From Styela clava (taxonomy: Eukaryota), in the NCBI RefSeq assembly GCF_964204865.1, contig NC_135257.1, positions 11,346,001-11,410,000 of the forward strand: a stretch of 64,000 bases of DNA, read 5' to 3'. Shown in pieces: positions 20,926 to 41,500 of the stretch. The translations under genes were made by a program, and so were the position numbers. The notes beneath the pieces are model-generated. The model saw nothing but the letters and a program-made list of their open reading frames with translations, was not told where the DNA came from and ran no database searches. Each line of letters opens with the position of its first letter. Within the stretch, counting starts at the first letter, position 1.

Positions 20926-21111
20926 GACCCCACCTTACTACGCCAATGTAAAATCTCGTCATAGAGCCATATTACTGTTACAGGTACCGGTAGGTAAATG
21001 CAGAAATGTGTGTCTACTGACAGACATGCCTGAATTCTGAGATTAGTCACAAAAGAGGCCCATACAAAAAGTAGATGGAGGCTGGCACTAGAGAACATAA
21101 AGTCTTTGCAA

Positions 21112-22275
21112 TTCCACAGGTCTCCAATTCCAAAAATAGATTTCACATTAAAATACATCACTTATGACAGTGAGTGCAAACCCCTCCTTTACGGGACAGT
21201 CTGTGCCTCCATATCGGCAAAATTCACAGCGCAATAAACTAAAAGAAAGTGTGATCTAAAGACGCCACCATCGGATCCATTGGAAAAAAAATAAACCGAA
21301 TTACAGAATAAAAAAAAAATATTATATCGTTTAAGCGTGCGCGTAACGTTCAAGTGTCTTAGCAAAAAACTCAATTTCGAATATGTGATGGCCGCGATTG
21401 ATTTAGATTATTTTCGAGACAAGCAGGGCACGATCTGCCATCGTGCCAGACGTCCACGTTTCAGAGATAAATAAGGTTTTTATTTTATTGAACCAAATAT
21501 CGGGATATCTTGGAATCAGAAATATGTGCCCTACTGAATTCATGTAGTCACCGAGAAAAGAGATGTAGCCTACCTACCCTTTGTTGATGTCACCAACATA
21601 AGTAGACAACTCAATACAGACACATAAAATAAAGACTGCCAGGGCTCTCTATCAATCCCTGGCCTTGACATTCCTAATTTGTCTAAATTGTACTCTGGAA
21701 AGCGCAGAAATTACTGACTAACAATTTCAAGTTGCAAAAATGACATTTTATATGAAAAAGGTTGAATTCTAAAATATCCAAATTCACAGTCACAATGAAA
21801 TACTGTTAGTGAATCGACTCTGCAATATTTCATACGTTTTAAGTGACCTGAGAAAATCTCAGATATTGTTTTTATTTCATACACGTTCAGTACGGCACAG
21901 TTCTCTGATTCCAAGAATAGCCCCCACATTAAGAGACATCAATTATAACAGTGAATGCAACCCCCTCTTTTATGAGACAATCTGGGCCTTCATATCGGCA
22001 CAAAAGAGCACACCGGCACCGCACAATAAACTAAAAAGAAGTGCAATCCTCAAAACATCATCATTGGACACCCCGGAAAAAAATAGTTCGATTTATCAAA
22101 GGAAATAAATTTTATCAGAATATCACGCACGTTGCTATTGATTTAAATTATCATTGAGACAAGCATGACGTGATCTGCCTGCCGTAGTGTCAAACACCCT
22201 CATTCAGATACATATATTGTTATTTTTATTGAATCAAATGTCGGAACATCTTGGAATTTAAGCACTGTGTCCTAC
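21112..22275. mobile_element. Two diverged copies of a ~390-420-bp MITE (about 21112-21534 and 21890-22275)
   Basis: Copy 2 TIRs GTACGGCACAGTTCTCTGATTCCAAGA / TCTTGGAATTTAAGCACTGTGTCCTAC; interiors of the two copies align. Confidence 0.65.
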
Positions 22276-22490
22276 ATACATTCAATTTCACAATAAATTG
22301 AATGGCGAAAATCAGAACATGTCCAGTAAAACAAGGTGTATTGCAACCTTAATTTTTACTATTCATTGATTGGCAATCATGCATCCTAAATAAAATGGTG
22401 CATATTTAATAGTTCTAACCTTATCTCTAATTAACAAACCATACTTTTGATATAGTATTGGCATTTGTATAATACAGTAACATTATTGCA

Positions 22491-23777
22491 ATGGACTTGA
22501 AAGATTGTTTCTTACAATTTCCTGATGTGAAGCCTGTGGATCATGCTAAAAATTGTCCAAGATACACAAATATCGTTAATCGGCATAAAGATGATGGAGT
22601 ATCATTGGATGAATTAGATTCTTTACAAATGGAGTTGGAACAACTACTTGCCGCTGCATCACAAAGGATGAGACAATTGAACTCGGAGATTGGCATATTG
22701 TCAGACCTACAAGACAATAAAAAAGACAAAAAAGTTTCCAGAGGCAAAGATACTGAGCATAAGCGCTCTCGAATAGTTGAAGATCGTCCAGTCAAAAAGA
22801 TGAAAACATCAGACTCATCATCTCATATTCATGCTATAAAACCCTTATTTCATTTGAATAGTTCAACGTCATCACCAAGTGGTGCTGGCAGGTCGAAGGC
22901 AAAAGGCTCTCGCATTGAAACAGAAACAAATGACGAATTACCCGTTTTACAAAGGAATGCTGAAGTTCCTAATAAGTTTTGGCAAATGGTTGATACATAC
23001 TGTGGGCCCATACCACAAGAAACAATTTCGCTTTTAGAGAAAATGGAAAAACCAATTTCTGAGGAATATTTTGAAATTCCCCCTCTTGGCAAACATTTCA
23101 GTCAAGTTTGGGCAGAAGAAGATTTGGCAATGGAGGAAAAAGAAGGGGGTAGAATTGGAAAAAATAATAGTAATACTGAGTCATCTATTCAGAGGATAAT
23201 GAAAAAAACAGCAGAAAATTTGAATGATGCAGAACCATGCCCATATGGGTCACTTACCCAGCGATTGGTTTCTGCTTTCGTGCAAGAAAATATAATAGCG
23301 CCACTGGATTCTGGTCTTGCCAATGATGGAAAAGCATTTGAAGCTCTTACGAACAATGACCAAAATGTTGCTTCCAAAAATGGCAAGGCATCTAGTTCTC
23401 CCCATACCACAAAACTGGAGGCCCGAATAAAGGCTGAACTATATGAACAAGGTCTTATTGATCATTTTTCTGAAAATGATAAAGATGAAGATGAAGTTCT
23501 TTTGGAACTGAAACGATGTCAACAAGAATTGAGGGCAATAGGTGATAGAAATAGGACAATTGTTTCACAACTTTTGAAACTTTCCAGAGATGATATGAAA
23601 AAACAAGAATTGAGAAAAAATATTGAAATAACAAACATTGAAGTTACTGAACATTACAGAAAGGTTTTTGCTGCTCGACAGAAAAAAAGAAATTTGATGA
23701 AAAAGGAAAAAGAAAGTGCATTGAAAGCTATAAAAGAACGAGAAAGTTTGGTCAAACAGTTAGAACAATTGAACTGA
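22491..23777 (+). CDS. TADA3: Transcriptional adapter 3 (SAGA/ATAC HAT module subunit), single exon, 428 aa
   Basis: Motifs CPRYT..., SLDELDSLQMELEQLL, PNKFWQMVDTYC, IPPLGKHFSQVWAEEDL, CPYGSLTQRLVSAFVQENII match the recalled human TADA3. Confidence 0.95.
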   Translation: MDLKDCFLQFPDVKPVDHAKNCPRYTNIVNRHKDDGVSLDELDSLQMELEQLLAAASQRMRQLNSEIGILSDLQDNKKDKKVSRGKDTEHKRSRIVEDRPVKKMKTSDSSSHIHAIKPLFHLNSSTSSPSGAGRSKAKGSRIETETNDELPVLQRNAEVPNKFWQMVDTYCGPIPQETISLLEKMEKPISEEYFEIPPLGKHFSQVWAEEDLAMEEKEGGRIGKNNSNTESSIQRIMKKTAENLNDAEPCPYGSLTQRLVSAFVQENIIAPLDSGLANDGKAFEALTNNDQNVASKNGKASSSPHTTKLEARIKAELYEQGLIDHFSENDKDEDEVLLELKRCQQELRAIGDRNRTIVSQLLKLSRDDMKKQELRKNIEITNIEVTEHYRKVFAARQKKRNLMKKEKESALKAIKERESLVKQLEQLN

Positions 23778-24372
23778 TTTATATTCAACGCACAGTTACA
23801 GATTATAAGTTTGGTTTGAATCTAATTGGACTCGTGGTAAACATACCCATGCACACAACCTCTATCGTGTATGGGGATGTTGAAATATCAATACCGGTAA
23901 TTAGAATTCAATTAATCTAAATGGTCTATTTTTACAATAACGTGTTTCATATTTTAAACAATCATGACATTTCCCTGACAATGGTAAATTTTTTGAGTAA
24001 TCTTATATGCATTTTGTTTATCAAAACTAAACATACCATGGTCATTTTGAATAGATGCTGAGTAATTTGGTTTGTCAATTGTTCCTGCAATATCTTGTAT
24101 CACAACTTACGAGTTGTAGTTTAAAACCCTAATTTGAAAAGACATGAGAACTCATTAATATGATATTATGTGATGTGAGTATGTATTATTTTCTATTACT
24201 GTTGTTTCTCTATCTTTGCAAATTACACATTGTTGGAATTTTGAGAAAAATTGACTTTTTTTGGTAAAACAGAAACCTTTTTTTCTTTCCTAATGTTTAT
24301 TCGTTTATCTTTTTTATACAGCAGAAATTTTGGTAAAAGTTAAATTACATTCGTAACTCTAATTTTTCGACT

Positions 24373-27300
24373 ATGGACGAAATATTATTTCCGAGAGGAA
24401 AAGCAAAGCGTGAACCATCGACTTTTAAGAAGAAGGGTGCCAAACGCCAAGCCGCAGTTGATTCTCTGTTTTCAGAAGGAAGCAAGTCATCTACGGGTGG
24501 GCATTTTACAAAAGAAAAGAAAAAACCAAAAGAAAAAGATGAAATAATCAAAAGTCATGGTATTAAAGATGTGGATGGATTGTTACAAGGGATGGATGAA
24601 ATAAATGTGGATTTTTTGCATTGCAAAAGAGTACAAGAGGGAACACTGCTGTTGGGGTGTATTCGTGAGATACAGGAACTGCAACTTGTTGTTGGTATAC
24701 CTCATTGTAATACTGGTCAAGTACAAGCTAATCATATATCTGATATATATACTTCGCAAATACGAAAGCATCTTGAGCAAGATTCTGAGCAGCTTACGCC
24801 TTTATCTGATATGTTTCAAGTTGGGGATATTGTTGTTTGTTCTGTAGTTAATCCAACAGGGATTACGACACTACATCTCACTCTTCAACCATCTGTTGTA
24901 AATAAATATCTCTCCACAATGAGTTTTTTTGTTGGACAGATGATTTCTGGTGCTGTAAAATCAGAAGAAGACCATGGTTATACTATTGATATTGGAAAAA
25001 ATGATGTTAATGCATTTATACCGACTGGGGAAATTGGTGCTCGAAAATTGAAACTTGGTGCTGTCATTCGTTTTGTCATTACAAGTATTCGAGGAGAAGG
25101 AACTATTGTACTTTTGTCTTTAGATGAGAAAAAAATTGAAAAATCACTTTTAAAACTGGATAATGGAGTTTCGCTGGATACGCTGCAACCTGGAATGGTG
25201 GGAATGTTCCATCCAACAAAAAAACTAAAGCCTGGCGTAGTTGGAAAATTCTTGGATTTTAATGCTTCAGTTTGTGCTCTTGATTGTGATATGTCTAAAA
25301 TACGCTTAGAAAAGGATGACTTTGATAAAAATTTTGGGAAGAAGAAAAAACGCAAAACGACTAAAGGAAAGGATCAACCTGAAAAAGAGAGAATTGACAA
25401 ACGGATCAAAGGCTGTATTTTGTATGTGAACCCTATTACAAAACATGTTTCATTGAGTACCAATCACTTTTTGTTCACCAATGATACAAGACTGAAGATG
25501 ATAGAAACTAACATGAATCATTTTCCTCGGGGACACAAATGCTCAGCTAAGGTTACAAAGTGCATCAATGGATTGGGAGCTATGTTAATGATTGGAGAGT
25601 CAAATGGAACTCGCGCTTTTTGCCCTATGAAGTATGTAAGTGATGCGAAGATAACTAATTTTACAGAAGTAATCAGAAAAGGTGATTCTTTCCCAGCACT
25701 GGTTCTGCATAGTTCAAGTCTGGATGGTGCTGTTATTTTGAGTTTGAAGAAAAGTATGGTTGAACGTGAATTTTTAACCTATGACAGCATTACTCCTGGG
25801 ACAGTCATGGATTGTACTATTTCAGGTATTTTCGACAGTGGACTTGTTGTAACATTAGGTACAGATGCCTTTACTCCAGTAAAAGGCTTTGTGCCCAAAA
25901 TCCACATGGCTGACATTATTTTAAACCATCCTGAGAAAAAGTTTTCAAAAGGTGATGTAATATCATGCAAAGTTTTGTACGTCGATAAAGCTGCTGGACG
26001 AATACATCTGACTCACAAGAGAACTCTTTTGAAATCACGACTTCCTACTATCGTTAGTTATGATCAGTTAGAGCCTGGTTGCATTGCTCATGGTTACATT
26101 GCATCTATCAAACCATATGGGGTTTTTGTGAATTTTTATAACAATGTACATGGCATTGTGCGCAACTCTGAATTGTCTGCAGAATTGGTGGAAGATCCTG
26201 AAAAAATATTTTTTGTTGGACAGGTTATGAAGTGCCGGCTTTTGAGTTGTGATTTGGAAGCAGAACGTGCATCATTTTCATTTATTCTGAGACCTAAGCC
26301 AAAAGACAAAAAAGAAGATCATACATCCGTATCTAATATTAGCTTGGTGAATCTAGAGGTGGTGAATAAAATTGAAGGTGGCTTCGAAGTTGTTGTATGT
26401 GATGATGATAAGCAAAGGGACTTGTGGACCAAAGGATTTCTGCCCTTGATGCATTTGTCTGATTTTCCATCACTGGCACATTCATGGTATGAAATTATCA
26501 CTCCACATACTGTTTTAGAGGATTGTTTACCCATTGGTAAAAAGAAACAGCCCATCTTTACCAAGAAAAATTCTTTTGTAGGTAAATTCAAGAGCATGAA
26601 AGAGAACGCTGAAGATAATGCAAATCAAACGCTTACATTTTCTGACCTGAAAGAAGATTTGATAACACCTGGTTTTGTACATCATATCGCCGAGTATGGA
26701 GTGTTTGTTCAAGTTTACGGTGGTCTTTTAGGCTTGTGTCCAAAATCAAAGATGGCTGATCGCTACCTCCTTACATCTGATGGATATTACCAAGAAGGGC
26801 AGTCGGTGGTTGCTAAAATAGTTGAAATGGATATGGAAAAAAGAAGGTTTATTGTCAGTTTGAAAGTTTCTGATTGTCCACAAGAACAACTCACAGCGGA
26901 TTACTTGAAAGAGCTAACAGATATAATGCGAAGCTGTTCTTCTTCATGGCCAAAATCAGTGGCAATTGGTAAGCAAATGAAGGTACATTTGACTTCCAAA
27001 CCAAGCGAAAATGGTGTGGCAATGTGTAGCAGTTCACTTTTCCCTGAAAATTATAAGTGTTGTGTGATAGATATAGATACCAATGAAGAGTCAACAGATG
27101 TGAATGCAGCTCTACTTGATGTAAACCCTGTATCAAAATGTATAACATTGTCAGCTAATAGCAAATTACTTGGAAGTACAGTGAAGCATAATAATGGTAC
27201 TGTCTTGAAGGCAACAGTGGCATACATGAATGAAGATGTGTCGACTGTTTTCGATCTGGAGAACGCCTATGCTGGTTTACTTTTAAATAGAACCCATCCC

Positions 27301-29916
27301 AATCATCCCATATTCGAGAACTTGTGGCCTTGGAAGCAACATGACAGCATTACTGTTACAGTATGTAAACCAATAAATCAAGCGAATGTCGTTTCTGCTA
27401 CTCAAACTTCCCACAACAAAAAGCATTTTACTCATGGTGTAAAACGCCAAAGAGAAGAATCGGAATGCTCTGATGTGTCCTTGCAGGGTGATATAAATTT
27501 TGGAAACCTCCAAGTGGGTCAAAAAGTTGAAGGTACCATTCGCTCTGTACGAATGAATACTATTCTTGTCAGGTTTACGGAGTCTGAATTGGAAGGTGGT
27601 TACCGTGGACAACCAGTCACTGGAAGATTGCACATATCAGAGATAGAACATAAACATGAACATGGTGCTTTTTCGAAGATTACAAAATACCGCCCTTGGG
27701 ACAAATTAAAATGTAATGTAATAGGATTTCGTGATGTACGTACACACCGTTATCTTGCAATTACTAATCGAAATGCTAGGAGATGTGTTCCTGAGTTAAG
27801 TTTACTCGATTCTCCAGTTGGCATTGAATTTGAGGATTTGAAGATAGGTCAATGTATTACAGCTTTTTCTCATCAATATGTTCCTTCGAAAGATGAAATT
27901 CATGTTGAAATTACTCCTGCTATAAAAGGATTTCTACCTACCTTACTGCTTTCTGATAATCCAATGAAAATATTGAAATCTTCTCACAAATTCAAGAAGC
28001 CTGTTGTATTGCATTGTATCGTGCACAAACTGATGCACAATACTGTCACGCTCGCTGGAAAAGGTGCTATGATTGATAGAAAAACTCAGAAAGATGTTAC
28101 TGAACTGAATGAAGATTGCATCACAAATGGAAAGATTTGCAAAATTTTTCCAAGTAACATGATTATCAAATTACCTAAAGGTGGTGTTGGAAAAGTACAC
28201 ATCACACAATCTGCAGATGTGTTTGCTACTCGTCCATTTGAAGACTTCGAAGTTAGCCAGGTTGTTCGCTGTAGTATTGTGTCATGTGGAGATAGGAAAT
28301 CACTTGCCCTTTCTTTGAGGAAATCTAGACTCGCACAGGAGTATGACCAAAGTAATATAAAGGATAAAGAGATCTCGGAAGCCAAAGAAATACATTCTGG
28401 CCAAATACTTCGTGGTTTTGTAAAAATCGTCTCAAATTCTGGAGTTTTCGTTAGTTTGTCCCGGACCATCACTGGAAGAGTAGACATGACAAAGATTTCA
28501 AAATATTTCATAAAAGATACAAGTCTGATAGAAGAAGTGTTGAAAGAAGGGACTCTTGTTACATGTAAAGTAATTGAAGTGTCTAAAATGGAGGGAAAAG
28601 TTAGTTTGTCATTGTTAGAAGGGGATACTGGTTTGCCAGATCTTATTCCTGAAGCTCTTGGTCTTCCACAAAGACATGGTAAGCCAAAAGAGCAAAAAAG
28701 AAAAGAAGTTGGTCTGTTGGTTGACAAAATTGAGGGAAGGAAAAGGCGCAAAAAACAAAAAGAAGAAACTGGTGGCACTGAAGAGAAAAGAAAGAAGACT
28801 GATGACATTGATTCTGGACTTGAAGAGGAATCACCAACATTGGATACCCCACCTCGTTACCTAAGTAATGTTTCACAGCATGAAGATAGTGTTGAAGACC
28901 CAGGTTTTAGTTGGGAGTCAATAAATTCTACATCGGCAAAGGAAACAAGTGATTCTATGGATTCCTCAGATGATGACGATAATGCGGAATTGAGTGATGA
29001 AAAAGTTGTCAACAAGAAGAGCAAAAGAGAAATTGAAGCAGAAAAAGATCGTGAAGAAGCAGATCTGCGAACAAAAGAGGAGGAAATGTTAGAGGACAAT
29101 GCTCCACAGACAGCCTTGGATTGGGACAAGCTTGTACTTGCCAGTCCCCAGAATTCAATGCTATGGGTCAGCTACATGGCATTTCATCTTCGTGCCACTG
29201 AAGTTGAAAAGGCAAGAGTAGTTGCTGAAAGAGCATTAAAAGTGATTGATTTTCACGAAGAAAAAGAAAAGTGGAATGTATGGGCAGCTCTTCTTAACCT
29301 CGAAACTAGATTTGGTAGCAGTGAATCACTGACAAAAGTGATAGATACTGCGACCCAGCATAATGACCCTCTGAAAGTTAATTTTCATATGGTTTCTACC
29401 TTTGAAAGGTTGAACAAGTTTGATAATGCAGAAGAGTTGTGCTCAAAAATAGTAAGGAAATTCAAGCGCAATAAATCTGCCTGGATACTTTATATCAGCC
29501 ATCTTATGCAAAGAGGAAAGAGAGAAAAGGCAAATGAAGTTTTCAAAAGATGTTTACAGAGTCTTGAAAAGAATGTTCACCTTGAAATTATTTCAAAGTA
29601 TGCCCAATTGGAATATAAATGCGGAGACACTGAACAAGGCAGAGTTCTATTCGAAAATGCTCTCAGTAATTATCCGAAACGGGCTGATATTTGGTCTGTT
29701 TATATCGATATGTTGATAAAAGTGGACAAGTTGGAAGATGCAAGAGAAGTGTTTGAGCGTGTTACAACTCTAAATTTATCAACTAAAAATATGAGAAGTT
29801 TTTTCAAACGTTACATTGATTTTGAAACCAAATATGGGAGTGATGAATCTGTAGCTGAAGTAAAACAGAAGGCTCTTGACTATATTGAGTCGAAAACAAA
29901 TGATATGGTGGAATAA
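24373..29916 (+). CDS. PDCD11: RRP5 homologue (rRNA biogenesis; S1 repeats plus C-terminal HAT/TPR repeats), single exon, 1847 aa
   Basis: N-terminal FPRG; repeated S1 motifs (EEDHGYTIDIG, YGVFVNFY, YGVFVQVY, SGVFVSL); C-terminal PQNSMLWVSYMAFHL, EEKEKWNVWAALLNLE, YPKRADIWSVYIDM. Confidence 0.95.
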   Translation: MDEILFPRGKAKREPSTFKKKGAKRQAAVDSLFSEGSKSSTGGHFTKEKKKPKEKDEIIKSHGIKDVDGLLQGMDEINVDFLHCKRVQEGTLLLGCIREIQELQLVVGIPHCNTGQVQANHISDIYTSQIRKHLEQDSEQLTPLSDMFQVGDIVVCSVVNPTGITTLHLTLQPSVVNKYLSTMSFFVGQMISGAVKSEEDHGYTIDIGKNDVNAFIPTGEIGARKLKLGAVIRFVITSIRGEGTIVLLSLDEKKIEKSLLKLDNGVSLDTLQPGMVGMFHPTKKLKPGVVGKFLDFNASVCALDCDMSKIRLEKDDFDKNFGKKKKRKTTKGKDQPEKERIDKRIKGCILYVNPITKHVSLSTNHFLFTNDTRLKMIETNMNHFPRGHKCSAKVTKCINGLGAMLMIGESNGTRAFCPMKYVSDAKITNFTEVIRKGDSFPALVLHSSSLDGAVILSLKKSMVEREFLTYDSITPGTVMDCTISGIFDSGLVVTLGTDAFTPVKGFVPKIHMADIILNHPEKKFSKGDVISCKVLYVDKAAGRIHLTHKRTLLKSRLPTIVSYDQLEPGCIAHGYIASIKPYGVFVNFYNNVHGIVRNSELSAELVEDPEKIFFVGQVMKCRLLSCDLEAERASFSFILRPKPKDKKEDHTSVSNISLVNLEVVNKIEGGFEVVVCDDDKQRDLWTKGFLPLMHLSDFPSLAHSWYEIITPHTVLEDCLPIGKKKQPIFTKKNSFVGKFKSMKENAEDNANQTLTFSDLKEDLITPGFVHHIAEYGVFVQVYGGLLGLCPKSKMADRYLLTSDGYYQEGQSVVAKIVEMDMEKRRFIVSLKVSDCPQEQLTADYLKELTDIMRSCSSSWPKSVAIGKQMKVHLTSKPSENGVAMCSSSLFPENYKCCVIDIDTNEESTDVNAALLDVNPVSKCITLSANSKLLGSTVKHNNGTVLKATVAYMNEDVSTVFDLENAYAGLLLNRTHPNHPIFENLWPWKQHDSITVTVCKPINQANVVSATQTSHNKKHFTHGVKRQREESECSDVSLQGDINFGNLQVGQKVEGTIRSVRMNTILVRFTESELEGGYRGQPVTGRLHISEIEHKHEHGAFSKITKYRPWDKLKCNVIGFRDVRTHRYLAITNRNARRCVPELSLLDSPVGIEFEDLKIGQCITAFSHQYVPSKDEIHVEITPAIKGFLPTLLLSDNPMKILKSSHKFKKPVVLHCIVHKLMHNTVTLAGKGAMIDRKTQKDVTELNEDCITNGKICKIFPSNMIIKLPKGGVGKVHITQSADVFATRPFEDFEVSQVVRCSIVSCGDRKSLALSLRKSRLAQEYDQSNIKDKEISEAKEIHSGQILRGFVKIVSNSGVFVSLSRTITGRVDMTKISKYFIKDTSLIEEVLKEGTLVTCKVIEVSKMEGKVSLSLLEGDTGLPDLIPEALGLPQRHGKPKEQKRKEVGLLVDKIEGRKRRKKQKEETGGTEEKRKKTDDIDSGLEEESPTLDTPPRYLSNVSQHEDSVEDPGFSWESINSTSAKETSDSMDSSDDDDNAELSDEKVVNKKSKREIEAEKDREEADLRTKEEEMLEDNAPQTALDWDKLVLASPQNSMLWVSYMAFHLRATEVEKARVVAERALKVIDFHEEKEKWNVWAALLNLETRFGSSESLTKVIDTATQHNDPLKVNFHMVSTFERLNKFDNAEELCSKIVRKFKRNKSAWILYISHLMQRGKREKANEVFKRCLQSLEKNVHLEIISKYAQLEYKCGDTEQGRVLFENALSNYPKRADIWSVYIDMLIKVDKLEDAREVFERVTTLNLSTKNMRSFFKRYIDFETKYGSDESVAEVKQKALDYIESKTNDMVE

Positions 29917-30381
29917 GAAGGAAGGACCAATAAAACGTACAATGCATGATGAATTTTAAATAGAAAATGGATTAGTAATTCTGTATCATTCAATCTGCAT
30001 AGTCGAACAGTATCACCTGTTTCTTATGGTCATTCATTTCATTGTTCTTTTGAAGTTTATCAATCAGTGAAATGGATGGATATTATTTTGCATTGAATAA
30101 CCTATTCTGTTTCTGCTCTCACTACTATTGCTGCATTGCCAGTGATTGTTATATTAATGCGACTGTCTGTCAGTTTATGCAAAATCACTCATTTGATCTG
30201 TAATGTGTTAAGTATGTGTTAAAATTTTTTTGCCTAATTATGGGTTTAAAATCGATCATTTTTCATGTATCTGTTCTTTATCATGCTATGTATCTTTATT
30301 TCAATCTCAAACTGCCAATCACGTTTTTTTCTGTTTTCCAGATCTTATAATAGATTTTATTCATGGTTTTTGTGCTTAGAA

Positions 30382-30615
30382 ATGGATAATCGTGGTGGAG
30401 GAAGCGTTATACAAAGAGAGATTCAACAAGATTGGGCAAATCGGGAATATATTGAAGTAATAACAAGCAGCATAAGAAAAATTGCAGACTTTCTCAACGG
30501 ATTCGATCTGTCTTGTCGTTCACGTCTTGCAACACTGAATGAAAAATTAACAAAACTTGAAAAGCGCATAGAATACATTGAAGCTAGAGTTACGAGGGGG
30601 GAAACTCTCAGCTGA
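30382..30615 (+). CDS. BRK1: BRICK1 / HSPC300 (WAVE regulatory complex subunit), single exon, 77 aa
   Basis: [67 protein letters not shown] is near-identical to the recalled human BRK1; ATG at 30382 follows TGCTTAG|AA. Confidence 0.95.
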
Positions 30616-30650
30616 ATTCTTGAATTGCACAAAACTTAACTTTATAAACT

Positions 30651-33600
30651 ATGTCTGATCCACTTTCTTTTTTTGCTGCTAATTCTGATGATTCCGATTC
30701 TGAAGATGATAATTCTGATAAGGAGGATGCTAGCATACCTGTTACTAAGCCTGCTCAACAAACAGTCAAACCAGGCAACAAAAAATTGCCACCACCTATG
30801 ACAGTACTTGCATCAGCTAAACGGCCAGAGTTTACAATAGACCCACTTCGCCAGGATGTGGACTGGGACAAACTGACAAAGAAAGCACCTGAACTGGTAA
30901 ATCATTTTCATATGTTTGTAAAAATATACCTTACCAGTCTACGGAATGTTCAGAGGCATTGTCTCTTACTTAGGACTTGATACAATGTTTAAATATAAGT
31001 TTCTGACCTATTACTGCTGCCGTTATTTTGTGTAGTGAGGATCTAAGTTACATTATTACTAGTGTAAGTAAGCCTAATTTATAGATATTATGAACTAATG
31101 AGTTGACGACCATCTTCCATTATTTCTCAAATTGTTCAGTACATGATGTTTTGTTTATAGTCAAATATCACATCCTCACTCGTAACACTACATGCACAAT
31201 ATATCTTCAACACAGTATAAATTTGTTGCTGCGACTAGGGTTGCCACTTCCGGATACATTTTTTTTCGAATCGAATCTCGAATCGAAAATTTTCGAATCG
31301 AATCTTTCCGAATCTGGTTCCGGAAATGTTTTTTTTTTTTTTTTTTCATCGCTAAAAAATTACCCAAACTGCGTCACCTCTAATGCTGACATGGCACCCA
31401 AACAATACACTATTACAGCAAAAACAAAACGCCAGTGGAAAATGAAATATAATCTGTTATCTGAAAACAAATTCCAAAATAACATGCAAAACATCACCCC
31501 CCCCCTGTCAGAACCTGTGTGTCAAGTTCGCGAAAAAGGCAAAATTTGAAGAAGATATTGTTTCACTCCAACAATTTCTTATTGCAGTAGAGAAAATTGA
31601 GTTCATTAACATGGGCACTCGTTAGTCGTGATCTCAACTGTGAAACAGTCAGTCCAGCAGAAGAAAAAGCCCTTTCTGAAGCAGCCGAGGTTGCGGGTAC
31701 ACTCAGATACTTCACTGCCATTCTCTTGAGCAAAGGGGCACGGGCTCCATTGTTATCCCACCAGGTCAATGGTGCAGGTGGTGACTCTTTATCATCAACC
31801 TTTCGTTTTAAGTACCAAGCTATTTCCTCTGACACAATATTTGAACTTTCCGAGTCTGAAGAACTGCCAGAGTTCTCTAGGCCTCTCTCAAAAAGTCCAT
31901 GAATTTCACTAGATGAATTCACGGTTTCCATTTGCTCTTGACTATGATCCATTTGTGGCAGGGGTCCATGACGTGATTCATCCTGAGCCGTAGAAGTATC
32001 TGCTTCAGTTTCAACAGCTATCCGCACCTATGAAAAATGTTTCATCAGCATCAGAAATCGAAGTGAGATTAATTTGAAATTAGAACATTCAAAAATTAAA
32101 TTACCGAGACTCGCATCTGTCTGCTGAAAAATTTGCCCTTGTGAAAGGGATTCAACCAGGTGGACTTGTGGTAAATGCTTACTCCTTCGCTTTGTACTGA
32201 AGTTGACATGACATCTGAGAATCTAGTGTGTAACGAACTGAGAATGGTCGAACAGAAGGTCTTTGATGCCGATAGCTGAAGATCATCGACAAGGAGTTCT
32301 TCACACTGACCCACTAAACCTTTTGCAATTGGTAGCAAAGATGACATCGTCACATAATTACTTCCTTCAAGGTGATCAGAGGCTGTCTAAAAATAAGATA
32401 TTTTATTGCAAATTTTTGAACACTGAATTGTAAACCCAAGGACAAATAATCCTAGTCAATATAATTCAGTTCTCATAAACTATCATTATGATGCAGCAAA
32501 CACAGAGTTAGTAACCTTTTGAAATAAAATTCTGAGCTTGATTAGTTACCTTGAATGGTTTCAATATGATAGAAATTTCTCTCAGCAAGCTCCAGTGGTT
32601 GTCCTTTAGTTCAAGACTGACTGCTGTCGCTCGTGGGACAATTGTTGGATCAGCCAGTACCGAACGAATTATCCACTGGTTTTTCACAAGATTTGCTATC
32701 ATAGCAAATGTGGAGTTCCACCTGGTTGAAACGTCTATCGGCATCTCAATGTTTTTTATTTCAGTGTCTGCCGACTGAGCATGGCGTCGCAACGCTGTCA
32801 TGCATTTTGCTGACCTTCTAAAGTGTTGCACTAAGTGCCGCGCAGCACCTGAAATTTAAATTTTTATACATAAATACATCCAGTGAACATATTCTGACAA
32901 AAAGTGTTTCATTTAAATAGCATATGATTTCAAACTATCCATTTGTAGGCATTCCATAGATTTATCAGGCTTTCCCCTTATTTAGCATCACATACAGCCT
33001 CACTTACCTAGTGCCCTTGCTATTTCTGTATTTTTGATGGCATCTTTGATACACAGCTGGAGGGTGTGAGCAGCGCAACGAATGTGATGCCAGCCATGTT
33101 CAGTTTGTAAAATTTTACATGCAGAAACAACATTCGCCCCATTGTCTGTTACTATAGCAAATATGGAGGAAGGGGGGATAGAAAAATCATTCAGTACATA
33201 TAGGATGTAACTTTTCAAGTTTATACCAGTTTGGTCCCCAACTATTTGTGTAGTGGACAATACATAGTTCTGTAGTTCTCCTGCCATGACAAAATGTGCT
33301 GTAACAGTTATATAAGCTTCCATCCGGATGCTTGTCCATGCATCTGTTGTGATAGATATCACATTTTGTTCTTTTAAAATAGACATGAGTTTGCATTTAT
33401 ACTGCGAATATGTAGTTTCAATCTGTTTTCCAAAAAAAGTTCTTCCAGGCATCTCGTATCCCGGCTCAAGATTTGATATTAAATTTCTAAAATGCTCCCC
33501 CTCTACGATATTGATCGGCCTCATGTCCCCTATTATAACATTGACTATTAATTTGTCTATATGATTCTGTCTTTGTCTGCTAATGGACTTTGATTTAAAA

Positions 33601-36600
33601 AAGGTTTCAAGTTTTTTCTGTTTTGTTCCACTTCCACTGCCTTCTGTCACTTGGCTCGCTGTTAAACTGAAAATAAAATGTATAAAATATAAACAGCAGC
33701 TACATAATCTTGTACACATTTAGTAAAATTTTCTGCTGGCTTGACCTGCTTTATTGATTAGACAGTATGAAATATGGTGGACAATTGCCTCTGACATAAA
33801 TTTGCCTGACCTGGCTGGGCATCACAACTGTCAACATCGCAACTAATACAATTCTAACTTTTGTATCAGCTTGAAGTTACACGAGTATAAAATTATTTCT
33901 AATTACTGATTTCTCTATTTATCTTTTCAGTCCTGCCAGTATGTTAGTTTAGCAAACCATTGCTTATTTCATTTCCTAAATGAAACTGTTTTAAGTACCC
34001 GAGTTTAAGAACTATAATTCTGTAGTTACGTAAGCCCATATGGCGTTCTGGCTGTAGAAGAATTAATTAAAAAAAAGGTTTGGCTTACTTTGATGTATGC
34101 ACTGAATCAGTGTTGATGAATGCATGTCTTCTTCTGAGGTGGTTCAAAAGATTGCCGGTAGACTCGCAGTATGACAACTTCTCTTTACAGAAGTTGCAAA
34201 TCACATATGAATATCCCTCCTCTTTTGACGGGCGAGAAAAATGTTCCCAGACTAAGGAATTGGGGCGCTGTCCCTGCCGCCTAGGTGTTATTTTTTTAAA
34301 GCTACTACTGATATTAGACATTCTGAATAATAAAAATGCATTGCAAATAGTCATATAATTAAGTTATACTAGTAAGCTACCGATGCCTGGCCGCACATTT
34401 TGCAGTCCAATGAGTTTAACAGCAGCGCATGGCACCCTGTCAAGTACCACGTCCCGGTTCTCCTACAATTTGCAATGCAAACTTGTAACAATCAGTCCCC
34501 ACTCAGTCTTGAACCACTGAATTGTTGAACCCAACACCGCAGAAGAACACTGAAAAAACTTGTTGTAATATTCCGCTTGACAACACGACAGAACAATACG
34601 GCAATAACACTCGCAAATGGCACACAGAGTTTGTAGACTACCCCACGCTGAGTTTTACTGTTACCGGTAACAAATATTGATAGATTCCAGGATTAAATAA
34701 CTAAATACAGAACAGTTAGTAAATATAACACGCAATAAGTCCCATCCTATCCTAACCTATTGATTCCCAACTAAATAATAACAATAGCAGAAATCTAATA
34801 ACTCACAAAACGCACACTCAACTAAATCCTAAAGGACCGGCAAAGCAGATGACTGCCGATTGCGCCATCACAGCTCGTCTCGCTCACGCACAACAGAGAG
34901 CAATACAAGATACTAACTAAAGAGCAAGGGTCGACGTCGGTCGATTGCAGCAGCCAATAGCGTGCAAGACAAACATATTGCGACATCGCTCAATACTCAC
35001 TCTCAAATACAATAAAGAAATAAACCAATGTTCAGACCTGTTGAAAATTGTTGTCGTAAAATTACGCATCAAAGAAGCCCGGGCGATATGTGAATTCGAC
35101 TTTGCGAACGAGCAAAGAGTTTTGCAGACCACTAGCAGATGTCTCGCTGGTGTGTGTTCCCCACTGCAAAACGAACGCAAAACGAGAGCACTTCGCCGAA
35201 AAAAAGAAGGCAAATCACTCTCTAAAGTATATCTTTCGTCGTTGAAATGAATGCTAATTTCATCAAACAAAGAACTGTATCCCATTATAAAGCGCAAATT
35301 CATTCGAGAGAGATAGCCGGACGAGCGCTTATTTGTTTGCTTTCGAGTGAAATCATATCTGGAAGACAACCGCCGTTAATAAAATCGAGAGTCGGCGTTA
35401 TTTTTTGTAAAGCCACGTTATCGTTTTTCGAATCGCCCGAGTGCGATTCGAATCGATTCGAAAAGGCAACGATTCGAATCGATTCGATTCGGAAATCCAA
35501 ATGTGGCATCCCTAGCTGCGACCAAGTGAATTTTATTTTCATACGATAAATTAACATATAAAAGCATTCATATCATTATGGAATGACAAGTTGGATTTGG
35601 TCAACCATATTGCCATTTTTGATTTTTCAACAAATCTCTGTATCAGGACGTAAGTTTATTTGTTACAGTTTGCAAATGCAATGTATAATATATTTTTCGT
35701 TCTTAGCCTGAAAAAGAATACAAGCCTTGGGAAAACAGACTTCCTACAGTTGAAAAATCTGTGAAGACCAAAGATGGAACAAAGCAATCAACTTTAGCAC
35801 AACAAGTACCTGGAGCTTCTGCTCCTAATGTTGCAGATGGTATGTAACTTTATTTATCTTACCATGAAAGCTTTTACCTCTTTAAAATATTAGAAGACAT
35901 TTGAGTGAATTGGAAATGATGTAATGCTCTTCACTTTTTTATACTTTGCGCCATTGCCAATTGAAAGCATTTGCAAGAGTTTCAAAGGTAACTGTTATAA
36001 CTCTTGACTCCTTAAGCATCTCGTTTTTCACTTTCAATGAACATACCTGAAGCAAGCCCGTATCATAAATGAAATAAATAGTAATATTTCATTATGTTTG
36101 ATTGAAATTACATTTTATAGGTCCAGCTCAAGGTCGCCCACATGAATACATTGATCAGGCAGTTCAGTGGTCTAAAATGTATCAAACAATGGATAAATCA
36201 GGAAATATCAAAAGGGTGAAACCACAGGATATAGGTGGAGAAGATTTAGAAGGATTTCTCTTTACTGATCTGGAGGCAGAAAAGGTGAATACTGCAGAGC
36301 TAATGAATTTCAACTTTGAATTCATACATTTTGCTCTGATCGAGGCTCTGTACAGGCAGCCACTTTTTTTAAAAAGATCCAAAACTTCCTGAACCTGCGA
36401 TGCCATATTAGTTAAGTCTAATGTAACCACTAGGCCAATAGCCCACAAAATTACTCTCTATTTGTAAAATAATGTTTGAAAAAATCAAAATTTAATGTGA
36501 CTACTATTCATTAGGTCGCATATAACGGTAACAAACGGCAGAAAATGGATCAACAACAGCCACCCTCTTTCCGATCCAAGGAAGCAAAAAAGAGAACTAT

Positions 36601-36679
36601 GGGAATGGCTAACAGAGACAAAATGTTTGTTGAAGAAGAGAAAAGGCTCTTAAGGCAGGAATTCGATGCCAATTACTGA
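30651..36679 (+). CDS. C1orf52: UPF0690 / C1orf52 homologue, 4 exons, 235 aa
   Basis: In-phase GT-AG exons 30651-30896, 35707-35839, 36121-36284, 36515-36679. Motifs DPLSFFAA, KKLPPP, RPEF..DPL.Q.VDW....KAPE.PEKEYKPW, IDQAVQWSKMY. AATAAA at 36777. Confidence 0.85.
31236..35514 (-). mobile_element. Full-length hAT DNA transposon (4279 bp) in intron 1 of C1orf52
   Basis: Perfect TSD GCTGCGAC (31228-31235, 35515-35522); TIRs TAGGGTTGCCAC / GTGGCATCCCTA; subterminal TTCGAATCGA arrays; transposase inside. Confidence 0.95.
31563..34321 (-). CDS. hAT transposase (ZBED1/Ac-like): BED finger, DDE core, dimerisation domain; 5 coding exons, 645 aa
   Basis: Exons 34321-34089, 33666-33008, 32848-32550, 32386-32105, 32027-31563 splice in frame with no stops. 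Motifs: BED VWEHF..C..C...TGNLLNHLRRRH, TTDAWTS, VTDNGAN, CAAH, TRWNST, WW, SAASERAFSSAG. Confidence 0.9.
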
Positions 36680-36776
36680 TTCCTACTGAATCGTTGGTTT
36701 TTATGCTTATAAGGCTTTCATAAGGACAGATTAAGATTTATCTACTGGTTTGGGTTTATTCCTCCCCAAAATAATG

Positions 36777-36782
36777 AATAAA
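36777..36782 (+). terminator. Polyadenylation signal at the end of the TADA3-C1orf52 cluster
   Basis: AATAAA about 100 nt after the C1orf52 stop. Confidence 0.6.
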
Positions 36783-38529: not shown

Positions 38530-41500
38530 CTAAGGATTAGGCTTACCATTGTAACAAGCAGTCTGCTTGCCATGATAAATTTTAACATTGGTTGTGAAAG
38601 GGTCCGATAATATTTGAATAGGTATTTTTTTCAGCGGAATTGAACTTTTGGAATGTAATGTGTAATTAGAGTATTGACTGGTTACTGTCCATGAACTTGA
38701 TTTTATTTTGGGTATAACATCATTGGAAAAAGTTTTTTGACTATTCGGAGTTGATGCAATAAGCAATTCTTCATTCTTTTGGTTTGAGCGCGCAGTATTG
38801 CCATCAAAATCAAGTTTGGACATTTGAGTCTCAATTTCTTCTCTTAGTTTGTCAGATGCTCGAGCTTGGCGAGACGTTACGTCAAATTTTTTGTTTCCTG
38901 ATATGTGAAAATTATTTATGTATCATTTGAAACCAAGCAGTGTAGGCCTCACGATAACAATATGTTGACAACATATGATGCTTTCAATTGCTCAAACGAT
39001 GTTGAATAGAATTGTTATTCCCATCAGTGATCAACAATTTAAAGACCATCTTCTTGTAGATGTAGTTATTATCATTTTTTAAACACTGCTGGATTTAAAA
39101 TACATTCAGACTAGTTAGGTTTTCCTTGTTTGAGATGAATTAAAGTGAGAAACTGTTCAATGAGTGATAATAGAAAAATTTATGCATAAAGGTCCATTCA
39201 ATACCTTTTGAATACTCTTTAGTGCTTTCCTCAGCCTGACTCGAAGTTTTTCGTTTCTTGTGTCTGCTTTTTGGTCTAGACTTCTTAGAATGTCTGAAAA
39301 ATATAACCGGGTGATAGACAATTTTAAACAATGAACAAGACTGTTTCAATATGCAGACAAGCTCCAATAACTGTTGCTCTGAAAATTATTTAATTTTTTT
39401 GTAGTATTACAAGAAGGATGATGCCTAGTCAATCTACCAAACAAGTTTGATTATAGTGAGTTTTGAATAGATACGCAATGCCGATGTATATTGAAAACGA
39501 CTAACACGATTGCCTGTGAAAGAACCTGACTATTCTGTCCTTTAAAATTTTATTCATAACTCAAAGTGTTGCTACTGATGAATTATAATCTGGAAGTAGG
39601 ATAGAATTTACATATTTATCCAGGGGGAGAAGAAAGCTGATAAAACAGCCTAATCATATGAGAAACCACTACTAGTTATCGAGCAGCGATGTTCGTGTTT
39701 AAGTCTAAAAGTAATGGATAATAGCATTAATCAAACAATGATTATAAAAGAAGTTTACGTCGAAATGTCCTGGATATGCCCAATACCAAGAGAATCAATT
39801 ATTAACGACTCCGAACACTGTCACGAGAGTAACCATGGTCTGTACAGCAACGATAACTAAGATAAGGCAAATAGCAAAAATATTACTTTGTAGTGCTTGG
39901 TCTTGAGATTTTACATTTCGATGGTAGAGCATTATCTCTTTCTTGTGCACCATCACATTCGTTAATCAAATCTAATAGCTTCAGACTTGAAAAACTTTCT
40001 GAAGCAACAGAAGGTCGACGAAGCTCAATTTCACCATGATCACTGTCTGTACCATCATCACCATCGGATGGATGACAAAGTTCCGACAAGTCTAACCATG
40101 TATCTGATTTTGGTGGTTCACTTTTCGACCGCAAATCAAAATTCCTTTTTGATTTATTTAGATCATTTTTCTGGAAGTTTGATGAAGTATTTTCTTCACA
40201 GGGAAGCTTTACGACACAGTGGATTCTTTCTTTTCCTTTATGAGAATATACTTCAGATGATTTTTCAGTTTGTGTTTTCTTTTGTTCAACTTTGAATTGC
40301 ACACTGGGTCTTCTTAGTAACTGTAACAAGAAAGTTCAAGTATAATTACAAAGCTATGTTATACATAAACAAGCAATTCAGCACACCTTGAATAACACGA
40401 TGCGCATATATATATTTATGATATTGGAATTGATGAGAGCCCATATTAACTCTATATAAACCTTGAAATATAGATGAATCAAGTTTTGAAAATATGATCA
40501 ATTGCTCATTTACATCATTTTTTTACTGTTCTCACTTCTTAGTATAAAAACAACTAACCAATCAATGGATATCATTTGCTGTACTGTACAATGAATACTG
40601 AGTTTTTGATCATAGGAATGTTATTTTATGTGATGTCAGCAGGCCGCAATGATGTTCTACCAAAATGAAATCCTATGCAGCTGCCAATTATTGTCGGCCA
40701 TAAATATTATATTGAAAGTAGTAAGCAGTCATGTTTTACTTTATAGTGTGTTCAAAAGGGTTAAGTTAGGCATGGTGATGACATGATTAAGGAGATATAT
40801 TAAATTTCGATCGAATTTACGTAGAATGTTGTTCTAGAATTCTGGATATGGATTATTTCAATTTGACTGGTAATTTCAAAAATAAGTAAATGTTTACTAT
40901 ATTCCTTGAACAATTTGTCCTTCTCAATTTTCCAAGCAAAAAAAAATTTTGTGTCTTTTAGAATCTTTTTTGCTAGCATTTGAAAAACAGTGATGGCCCA
41001 TAGGATTTGTCAAACATAATGAATAATTACCTATCATGAACTTGAATATTTTTTTCAAAGTGTTCATAAGAAATCGTTTGACATTGTGATAAAATCACAA
41101 AAAATATCATTTACTCATAGCAGTAACCAAGGGTCGAAAGCAGCTTTATTTCCCAATGAAAACAATGAATGATTTTGGTATCAACATGAATAGATTAATA
41201 AAAACCAATGTGGTAAAAGACAATTAGATTTGTGTTGAGAGGAAACAATTACACTCAATAGAAATGAATACATTTTGTTGAATTTACAAAAACGTCTGTT
41301 GTCTTTGTCACCTTTGTTTATTACTCTATTGTCTCAAACAATAGGTAGAAATAATCACACAACAAATCAAAACACAATGTATAAAATTTGTTGAACATCT
41401 ATTGATTCGCATGGGATAATTTAACAGTCTCGCTCGAAAGAATTTCTATTATAAAAAGTGTGTGTTTATGTCTATAAAAAGAAGTACAGTAATAAATCGA

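Follow-up and report, generated by a model that had tools for sequence, protein, structure and literature searches.

A candidate TADA3-RRP5-BRK1-C1orf52 operon in Styela clava with a probably bicistronic last message

Introduction

Operons are routine in ascidians and take in about 20% of Ciona genes. Here we describe a candidate operon of the ascidian Styela clava, made up of the genes TADA3, RRP5, BRK1 and C1orf52 on the + strand of contig NC_135257.1 (assembly GCF_964204865.1), within a stretch of 64,000 nucleotides (nt; positions 11,346,001 to 11,410,000) that is called the window below and whose own numbering is used for the locus. The closest described systems are the Ciona operons resolved by a spliced leader (SL), for which the excerpts available of Satou et al. 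2006 (PMC1488885) and Satou et al. 2008 (PMC2760879) describe unrelated genes lying head to tail, one SL on the downstream cistrons, an upstream 3′ untranslated region (UTR) that reaches the acceptor, and an intronless 5′-most gene. The excerpt of PMC2760879 gives four-gene cases as 36 of 1,310 operons and the 5′-most gene as intronless in 60%, and that of PMC1488885 describes polyadenylation at the acceptor AG itself, usually without an AATAAA. The Styela locus is alike in its unrelated head-to-tail genes, the SL on RRP5 and BRK1, 3′ UTR cover close to the acceptors, and an intronless first gene. Its last cistron, however, lacks an acceptor and is apparently not resolved, its gene set differs, and its leader is a 24-nt form.

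The last two genes of the locus resemble the dicistronic mRNAs of Drosophila (FlyBase ‘Rule-Benders’, PMC4528330; e.g. Mocs2/CG42503), in which, as far as the excerpt goes, two non-overlapping conserved open reading frames (ORFs) share each processed message, and a small protein, easily overlooked in annotation, is involved. The BRK1 and C1orf52 ORFs are both conserved and do not overlap. No SL takes part in Drosophila, whereas the two-ORF message of Styela would itself be the final product of an SL-resolved operon; furthermore, the Styela case is known from contigs, with its dual translation predicted. A model for how the second ORF might be translated is offered by the ORF35-37 message of Kaposi's sarcoma-associated herpesvirus (PMC3561293), where, in the part of that paper available, a short upstream ORF (uORF) represses the first cistron and permits reinitiation at the second, as may apply to a uORF at 30363 in Styela. 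That message is viral, not trans-spliced, and experimentally tested, in contrast to the Styela route, which is deduced from sequence.

The four-gene unit alone adds another example to the known ascidian operons, and its likely bicistronic tail matters more. Our literature search, with subscription journals mostly outside its coverage, returned nothing on this locus or on spliced leaders in Styela, no ascidian bicistronic case among the best 20 of 218 matches, and nothing relevant on BRK1 with C1orf52.

Trans-splicing and probable co-transcription

The four genes probably form one ascidian operon of the ordinary Ciona type, and the full model proposed here, in which that operon ends in a bicistronic BRK1-C1orf52 message, is given a probability of about 0.55. 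The RNA evidence consists entirely of assembled contigs, from which rare variants and short tips are pruned, of five probable RNA runs of this organism (X1, X2, X3, X4 and X7; three studies, out of nine such runs). These are taken as RNA because GT-AG introns are skipped in them, whereas the DNA run X11 retains these introns. Breaks and leaders at contig ends are throughout those among the loose ends listed, and contig depth was not used for ranking genes. A run from another organism (X14), aligned at 80% likeness, is uninformative, yielding a single contig over the RRP5 C-terminus and nothing over BRK1.

The original prediction, made from the sequence alone, had placed acceptor-like AGs ending at 22477, 24321, and 30341 ahead of TADA3, RRP5, and BRK1 respectively. 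All three are present in the sequence, with SL letters found in RNA contigs at the latter two. At 30340, a 22-letter loose end in X2 forms, with the genomic AG, a 24-mer that matches the ‘Chordata 1’ SL consensus as given in the excerpt of PMC3795323. X7 has adapter followed by the last 3 leader letters at this position, so that the leader is seen here in two runs from two studies, and X3 has 3 extra letters at the same place, reported by their number and not by the letters themselves. At 24320, X2 carries a 69-letter loose end, of which the final 13 letters match the 3′ end of the SL. Both acceptors also have pyrimidine tracts that rank near the top in pyrimidine richness among the 3322 + strand AGs in the window (Table 1). 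A cis-spliced 5′ exon as the origin of the leader letters, which the prediction had named as one outcome that would count against it, is ruled out: the window does not encode the leader, its closest 15-mer match, with 2 mismatches, being located downstream. SL RNA-like genes are instead found in a tandem array at C8:4.23-4.58 Mb (a 1634-bp unit in the part examined) and carry a TATA box, a GT donor, and an AU-rich Sm-like site; Rfam gave no match on these SL RNA-like loci.

The proposed acceptor of TADA3 did not fare so well, with 49.7% of AGs having a tract equally rich in pyrimidines and no leader listed there. The X1 and X7 contigs pass 22477 from upstream, the X3 contig starts at 22482, and the Ciona TADA3 is labelled nonSL in the part seen of the supplement of PMC10951915/PMC10962819. 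TADA3 is likely the first cistron. Upstream of it, at ~21050–22300, lies a repeated sequence matched by many RNA- and DNA-run contigs, which makes the 5′ end of the unit hard to place. Further pyrimidine-preceded AGs occur at 24339 and 30379, downstream of the main acceptors and ahead of the start codons. The X1, X3, and X4 contigs start at 24341–24343, directly after the former, which may be a second RRP5 acceptor, and an SL at the latter would eliminate the AUG of the uORF and place the BRK1 start 2 nt from the leader.

The coordinates bear out the predicted arrangement of four same-strand genes separated by 595, 465, and 35 nt, and RNA contigs run without a break from the ORFs through most of the first two gaps. 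TADA3 contigs extend to 24216 in X3 and X7 and to 24276 in X2, the latter end lying 45 nt from 24321. RRP5 contigs end at 30293 (X2), 30266 (X3), and 30317 (X7), 24–75 nt short of 30341, having passed the single AATAAA that lies, as predicted, shortly 3′ of the RRP5 stop at 29929 and that evidently does not end all RRP5 RNA. X2 is continuous over 22513–24276 and 24320–30293, and X7 over 24455–30317, while the X1 (30238–30895) and X4 (30023–30896) contigs cross 30341 unspliced, beginning 103 and 318 nt upstream of it and continuing into C1orf52. The reported absence of AATAAA and ATTAAA between the TADA3 stop and 24321 holds, though with 1.4 expected from composition it is weak evidence, and AATAAA is absent within 40 nt of 24321 and 30341, the presumed upstream 3′ ends, again a weak point as few would be expected by chance.

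By analogy, this cover near the acceptors would fit the pattern of the Ciona operons, and promoters inside the 3′ UTRs would also be compatible with it. Co-transcription of RRP5 and BRK1 is judged very likely, and that of TADA3 and RRP5 likely. A single precursor would be made from one promoter upstream of TADA3, and SL joined at 24321 and 30341 would cut it into TADA3, SL-RRP5, and SL-BRK1-C1orf52 messages, with the upstream 3′ ends presumably forming directly at the acceptor AG or close to it, in the manner of Ciona. The polycistronic unit of the original prediction is thus partly supported, by the SL at the RRP5 and BRK1 acceptors and by the 3′ UTR cover near them; C1orf52 is apparently not released from BRK1.

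A probable BRK1-C1orf52 message

Release of C1orf52 had been left unaddressed in the prediction, and our data suggest that it does not take place. BRK1 and spliced C1orf52 share a single contig in all five RNA runs (three studies), and in X2 this contig is headed by the leader. No break or loose end is listed at 30611–30650 in any of the five, compared with a break at 30340 in three of them. The nearest AG upstream of C1orf52 is at 30611, inside the BRK1 ORF, with a purine-rich tract (7/20 pyrimidines) that 87% of AGs equal or surpass. Contig cover is absent at 30944–31225 in X2, X4, and X7, which gives no sign, if only weakly, of a BRK1 3′ UTR entering intron 1. On balance we favour a message that mostly stays in one piece and is bicistronic, and C1orf52 is not classed as an SL-resolved cistron.

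Three AUGs lie between the acceptor and the C1orf52 start, namely those of the uORF at 30363, of BRK1, and of a 3-codon ORF at 30539 in weak context. Scanning is the route that we favour. Ribosomes starting at the 8-codon uORF, which overlaps the BRK1 start out of frame, would skip that start and, after leaking past the weak AUG at 30539, would reinitiate at the C1orf52 AUG, such that C1orf52 would be translated as the second cistron. If the message is bicistronic, the odds that this uORF route or leaky scanning operates are put at even, judging from the positions and contexts of the AUGs. A title in the reference list of PMC4528330 ties second-cistron translation to a lack of in-frame AUGs in the first cistron. 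The Styela BRK1 has no internal Met. Of the 120 BRK1 matches listed, 20 have no Met in the 62-residue core, among them the three paired with C1orf52 below, which are kin and count as one event.

Were the tail bicistronic, operon counts made from SL sites would miss cistrons, and a core subunit of the WAVE complex, BRK1, could hide in an apparent 5′ UTR.

Gene order in other species

The four genes are unlinked in Ciona. In the parts available of PMC10951915 and PMC10962819, TADA3 is placed at Chr4:5.53 Mb, abutting MRPS2, C1orf52 at Chr4:4.99 Mb, and PDCD11 (RRP5) at Chr5:7.47 Mb, with two BRK1-labelled models at Chr5:5.93 Mb and KH.C2.899. The same sources list a separate SL transcript for C1orf52 (KY21.Chr4.798.v1.SL1-1), with its ORF at nt 9, and give TADA3 a span of 4.2 kb for a 1756-nt mRNA and PDCD11 one of 11.7 kb for 5025 nt; since these spans far exceed the mRNA sizes, both Ciona genes have introns. 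The Styela TADA3 and RRP5 ORFs are intact and covered by RNA contigs and, because they are also single-copy here, they are working genes that have lost their introns, for which retroposition is a plausible origin. With the same genes in different neighbourhoods and introns lost in Styela, the origin of single-exon first genes of ascidian operons becomes testable at one locus.

The three best BRK1 matches each equal a relative of C1orf52 in contig count and longest contig (2/2265, 2/2955, and 1/3583). Three such size matches arose in 0.09% of jittered trials, in a test restricted to Logan contigs shorter than 10 kb, with 26 BRK1 and 22 C1orf52 rows. This indirectly suggests that BRK1 and C1orf52 are adjacent in three other data sets, two of which look closely related, with adjacency implying no shared mRNA. 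A metagenome scan found three C1orf52 loci from one other ascidian-like genome, in which the gene is intronless, with no BRK1, RRP5, or TADA3 match in the 1.55–1.71 kb upstream or 7–10 kb downstream of it. The C1orf52 relatives listed include none from Clavelina.

A tentative extension of the model, which we regard as doubtful, is a hybrid operon in which the first cistrons are SL-resolved and the final message is always bicistronic, with the uORF setting the BRK1:C1orf52 ratio. This arrangement would be conserved in one ascidian branch. It would have arisen once the lineage had separated from that of Ciona, when copies of TADA3, RRP5, and BRK1 that lacked introns, and were probably retroposed, inserted 5′ of a gene with introns. 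If true, it would illustrate at one locus the origin of ascidian operons whose 5′ genes have a single exon.

Alternative explanations

Several points weigh against the model of an operon with a bicistronic last message. Assembled contigs do not reveal single molecules, their starts or ends, or rare variants. Position 24321 is spanned by none of the contigs listed, no poly(A) is seen at any acceptor in the contigs, which do not display poly(A) ends, and an internal promoter could have produced the contigs across 30341 as outrons. The leader at 24320 comes from one run, X2, with the other 17 displayed letters of its loose end unlike the SL and the displayed 30-mer missing from the genome, so that it is probably a chimeric fragment. 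At the BRK1-C1orf52 junction, the lack of an AG in the 35-nt spacer is not significant on its own, as 35-mers free of AG make up 39% of those in the two 3′ UTR gaps, and a minor leader at 30611 would be pruned from the contigs. The BRK1 AUG is in a strong context, which disfavours simple leaky scanning, and the idea that selection has depleted BRK1 of AUGs was rejected (P = 0.18 given the protein sequence). As to adjacency elsewhere, P0138 seems to be a gene model built from genomic sequence, and three of the six closest C1orf52 relatives (P0003, P0004, and P0006) have no size-matched BRK1 among the best 120 of 429 matches.

The same contigs could be read as tightly packed monocistronic genes, with promoters of RRP5 and BRK1(-C1orf52) inside the upstream 3′ UTRs and trans-splicing from short outrons. 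About half of Ciona genes are trans-spliced, with putative outrons peaking near 100 nt, often measuring 100–500 nt, and averaging 438 nt in the excerpt of PMC4691747, sizes that fit the Styela stop-to-acceptor gaps of 544 and 425 nt, and both the AATAAA at 29929 and the uncrossed position 24321 would suit separate genes. The unbroken contigs, however, mean that upstream 3′ UTRs would have to overlap downstream promoters, and the first gap has no canonical poly(A) signal, a weak point as noted above; we consider this arrangement improbable. A fully resolved operon, in which C1orf52 receives an SL of its own at the AG at 30611 within the end of BRK1, and each precursor would yield either a BRK1 or a C1orf52 message, would be in keeping with the SL transcript of Ciona C1orf52, with the expectation that every downstream cistron of an SL operon is trans-spliced (excerpt of PMC1488885), and with the pruning of short tips, which would render a minor leader invisible. 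It is nevertheless thought unlikely, given the purine-rich tract and the lack of any listed break or leader at 30611 in the five runs, whilst a cut there would leave the upstream RNA without the BRK1 stop codon.

That the first three consecutive ORFs are all intronless might further suggest processed pseudogenes, or a BRK1 ORF that goes untranslated or is dispensable within the C1orf52 5′ UTR, and the window BRK1 is missing from the protein collection that holds its three neighbours. A second BRK1-like sequence, which begins directly after an acceptor-like AG, lies at C18:822113-822295 and is 59% identical over residues 14–74. The window BRK1 is nonetheless the conserved copy, as judged by sequence comparison, because it is 99%, 87%, and 86% identical to its top three matches and 80–87% identical to several amphioxus and vertebrate proteins, compared with just 59% for the C18 copy. 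A processed pseudogene cluster was rejected, with the ORFs not decayed and no intron-bearing parent of TADA3 or RRP5 elsewhere in the genome, and explanations of this kind are held to be very improbable.

Locus layout and gene identity

The features of the locus are collected in Table 1. RefSeq agrees with the gene names for RRP5 and C1orf52, and homologue searches agree for BRK1 and TADA3. A genome search with the C-terminal 276 residues of RRP5 gave one true match and one 24% match at E 8.5e-4. The three introns of C1orf52 are defined by GT-AG joints in X1, X2, and X3, which are missing from the DNA run X11. Among the flanking ORFs scanned, no Pfam match marks a fifth gene.

Table 1. Positions in the window of the genes, candidate processing sites and transposon of the locus; tract ranks are by pyrimidine richness
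Feature	Position	Strand	Description and evidence
TADA3	22491-23777	+	Intronless ORF, 428 aa; Pfam Ada3 (PF10198); one match in genome
RRP5/PDCD11	24373-29916	+	Intronless ORF, 1847 aa; S1 and HAT repeats; single copy
BRK1/HSPC300	30382-30615	+	Intronless ORF, 77 aa; no internal Met
C1orf52	30651-36679	+	Four exons, 235 aa, DUF4660 (PF15559)
C1orf52 exon 1, coding part	30651-30896	+	RNA contigs, PF15559
C1orf52 exon 2	35707-35839	+	GT-AG joint in X1, X2, X3; joint not in DNA run X11
C1orf52 exon 3	36121-36284	+	RNA contigs
C1orf52 exon 4, to stop codon	36515-36679	+	AATAAA at 36777; X3 contig continues to 37107
TADA3 candidate acceptor	22471-22477	+	Unsupported; pyrimidine tract average
TADA3 3′ UTR / spacer	23778-24321	+	Without AATAAA or ATTAAA
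RRP5 trans-splice acceptor	24300-24321	+	Leader letters in X2; tract top 2.6%
RRP5 3′ UTR	29917-30341	+	Extends beyond AATAAA at 29929 up to BRK1 acceptor
BRK1 trans-splice acceptor	30320-30341	+	Leader letters in X2, X7; tract top 0.4%
uORF, 8 codons	30363-30389	+	Overlaps BRK1 start out of frame; function predicted from sequence
BRK1-C1orf52 spacer, 35 nt	30616-30650	+	Without AG
hAT transposon in C1orf52 intron 1	31236-35514	-	Terminal inverted repeats; 8-bp target duplication (31228, 35515); DUF659, hAT dimerisation domain

Transposons and neighbouring sequence

In X1 and X2, the hAT element in intron 1 of C1orf52 is matched by a spliced antisense contig. The DNA run X11 has a joint that would fit an empty site, so that the insertion may be polymorphic. 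Exact copies of the full 24-nt SL exon number 326 genome-wide, many of which form same-strand pairs 5–6.5 kb apart. In the pair examined in full (C1:13883000-13891200), the copies lie ~160 nt inside identical 754-bp long terminal repeats (LTRs) of a retrotransposon encoding gag, protease, and reverse transcriptase-RNaseH-integrase, with some LTR variants having a GT directly 3′ of the SL. Such an element may have acquired the leader by capture from its trans-spliced RNA; alternatively, it may be a mimic or a donor of the leader. The matches listed by the literature search held nothing, by title or abstract, on an SL in ascidian LTR retrotransposons. Downstream of C1orf52, ORF fragments without a Pfam match lie on the - strand at 38530–38922 and 39883–40335, and a separate 650-nt X3 contig starts at 37245 and runs beyond 37500, and may thus represent the 3′ end of a gene in convergent orientation.

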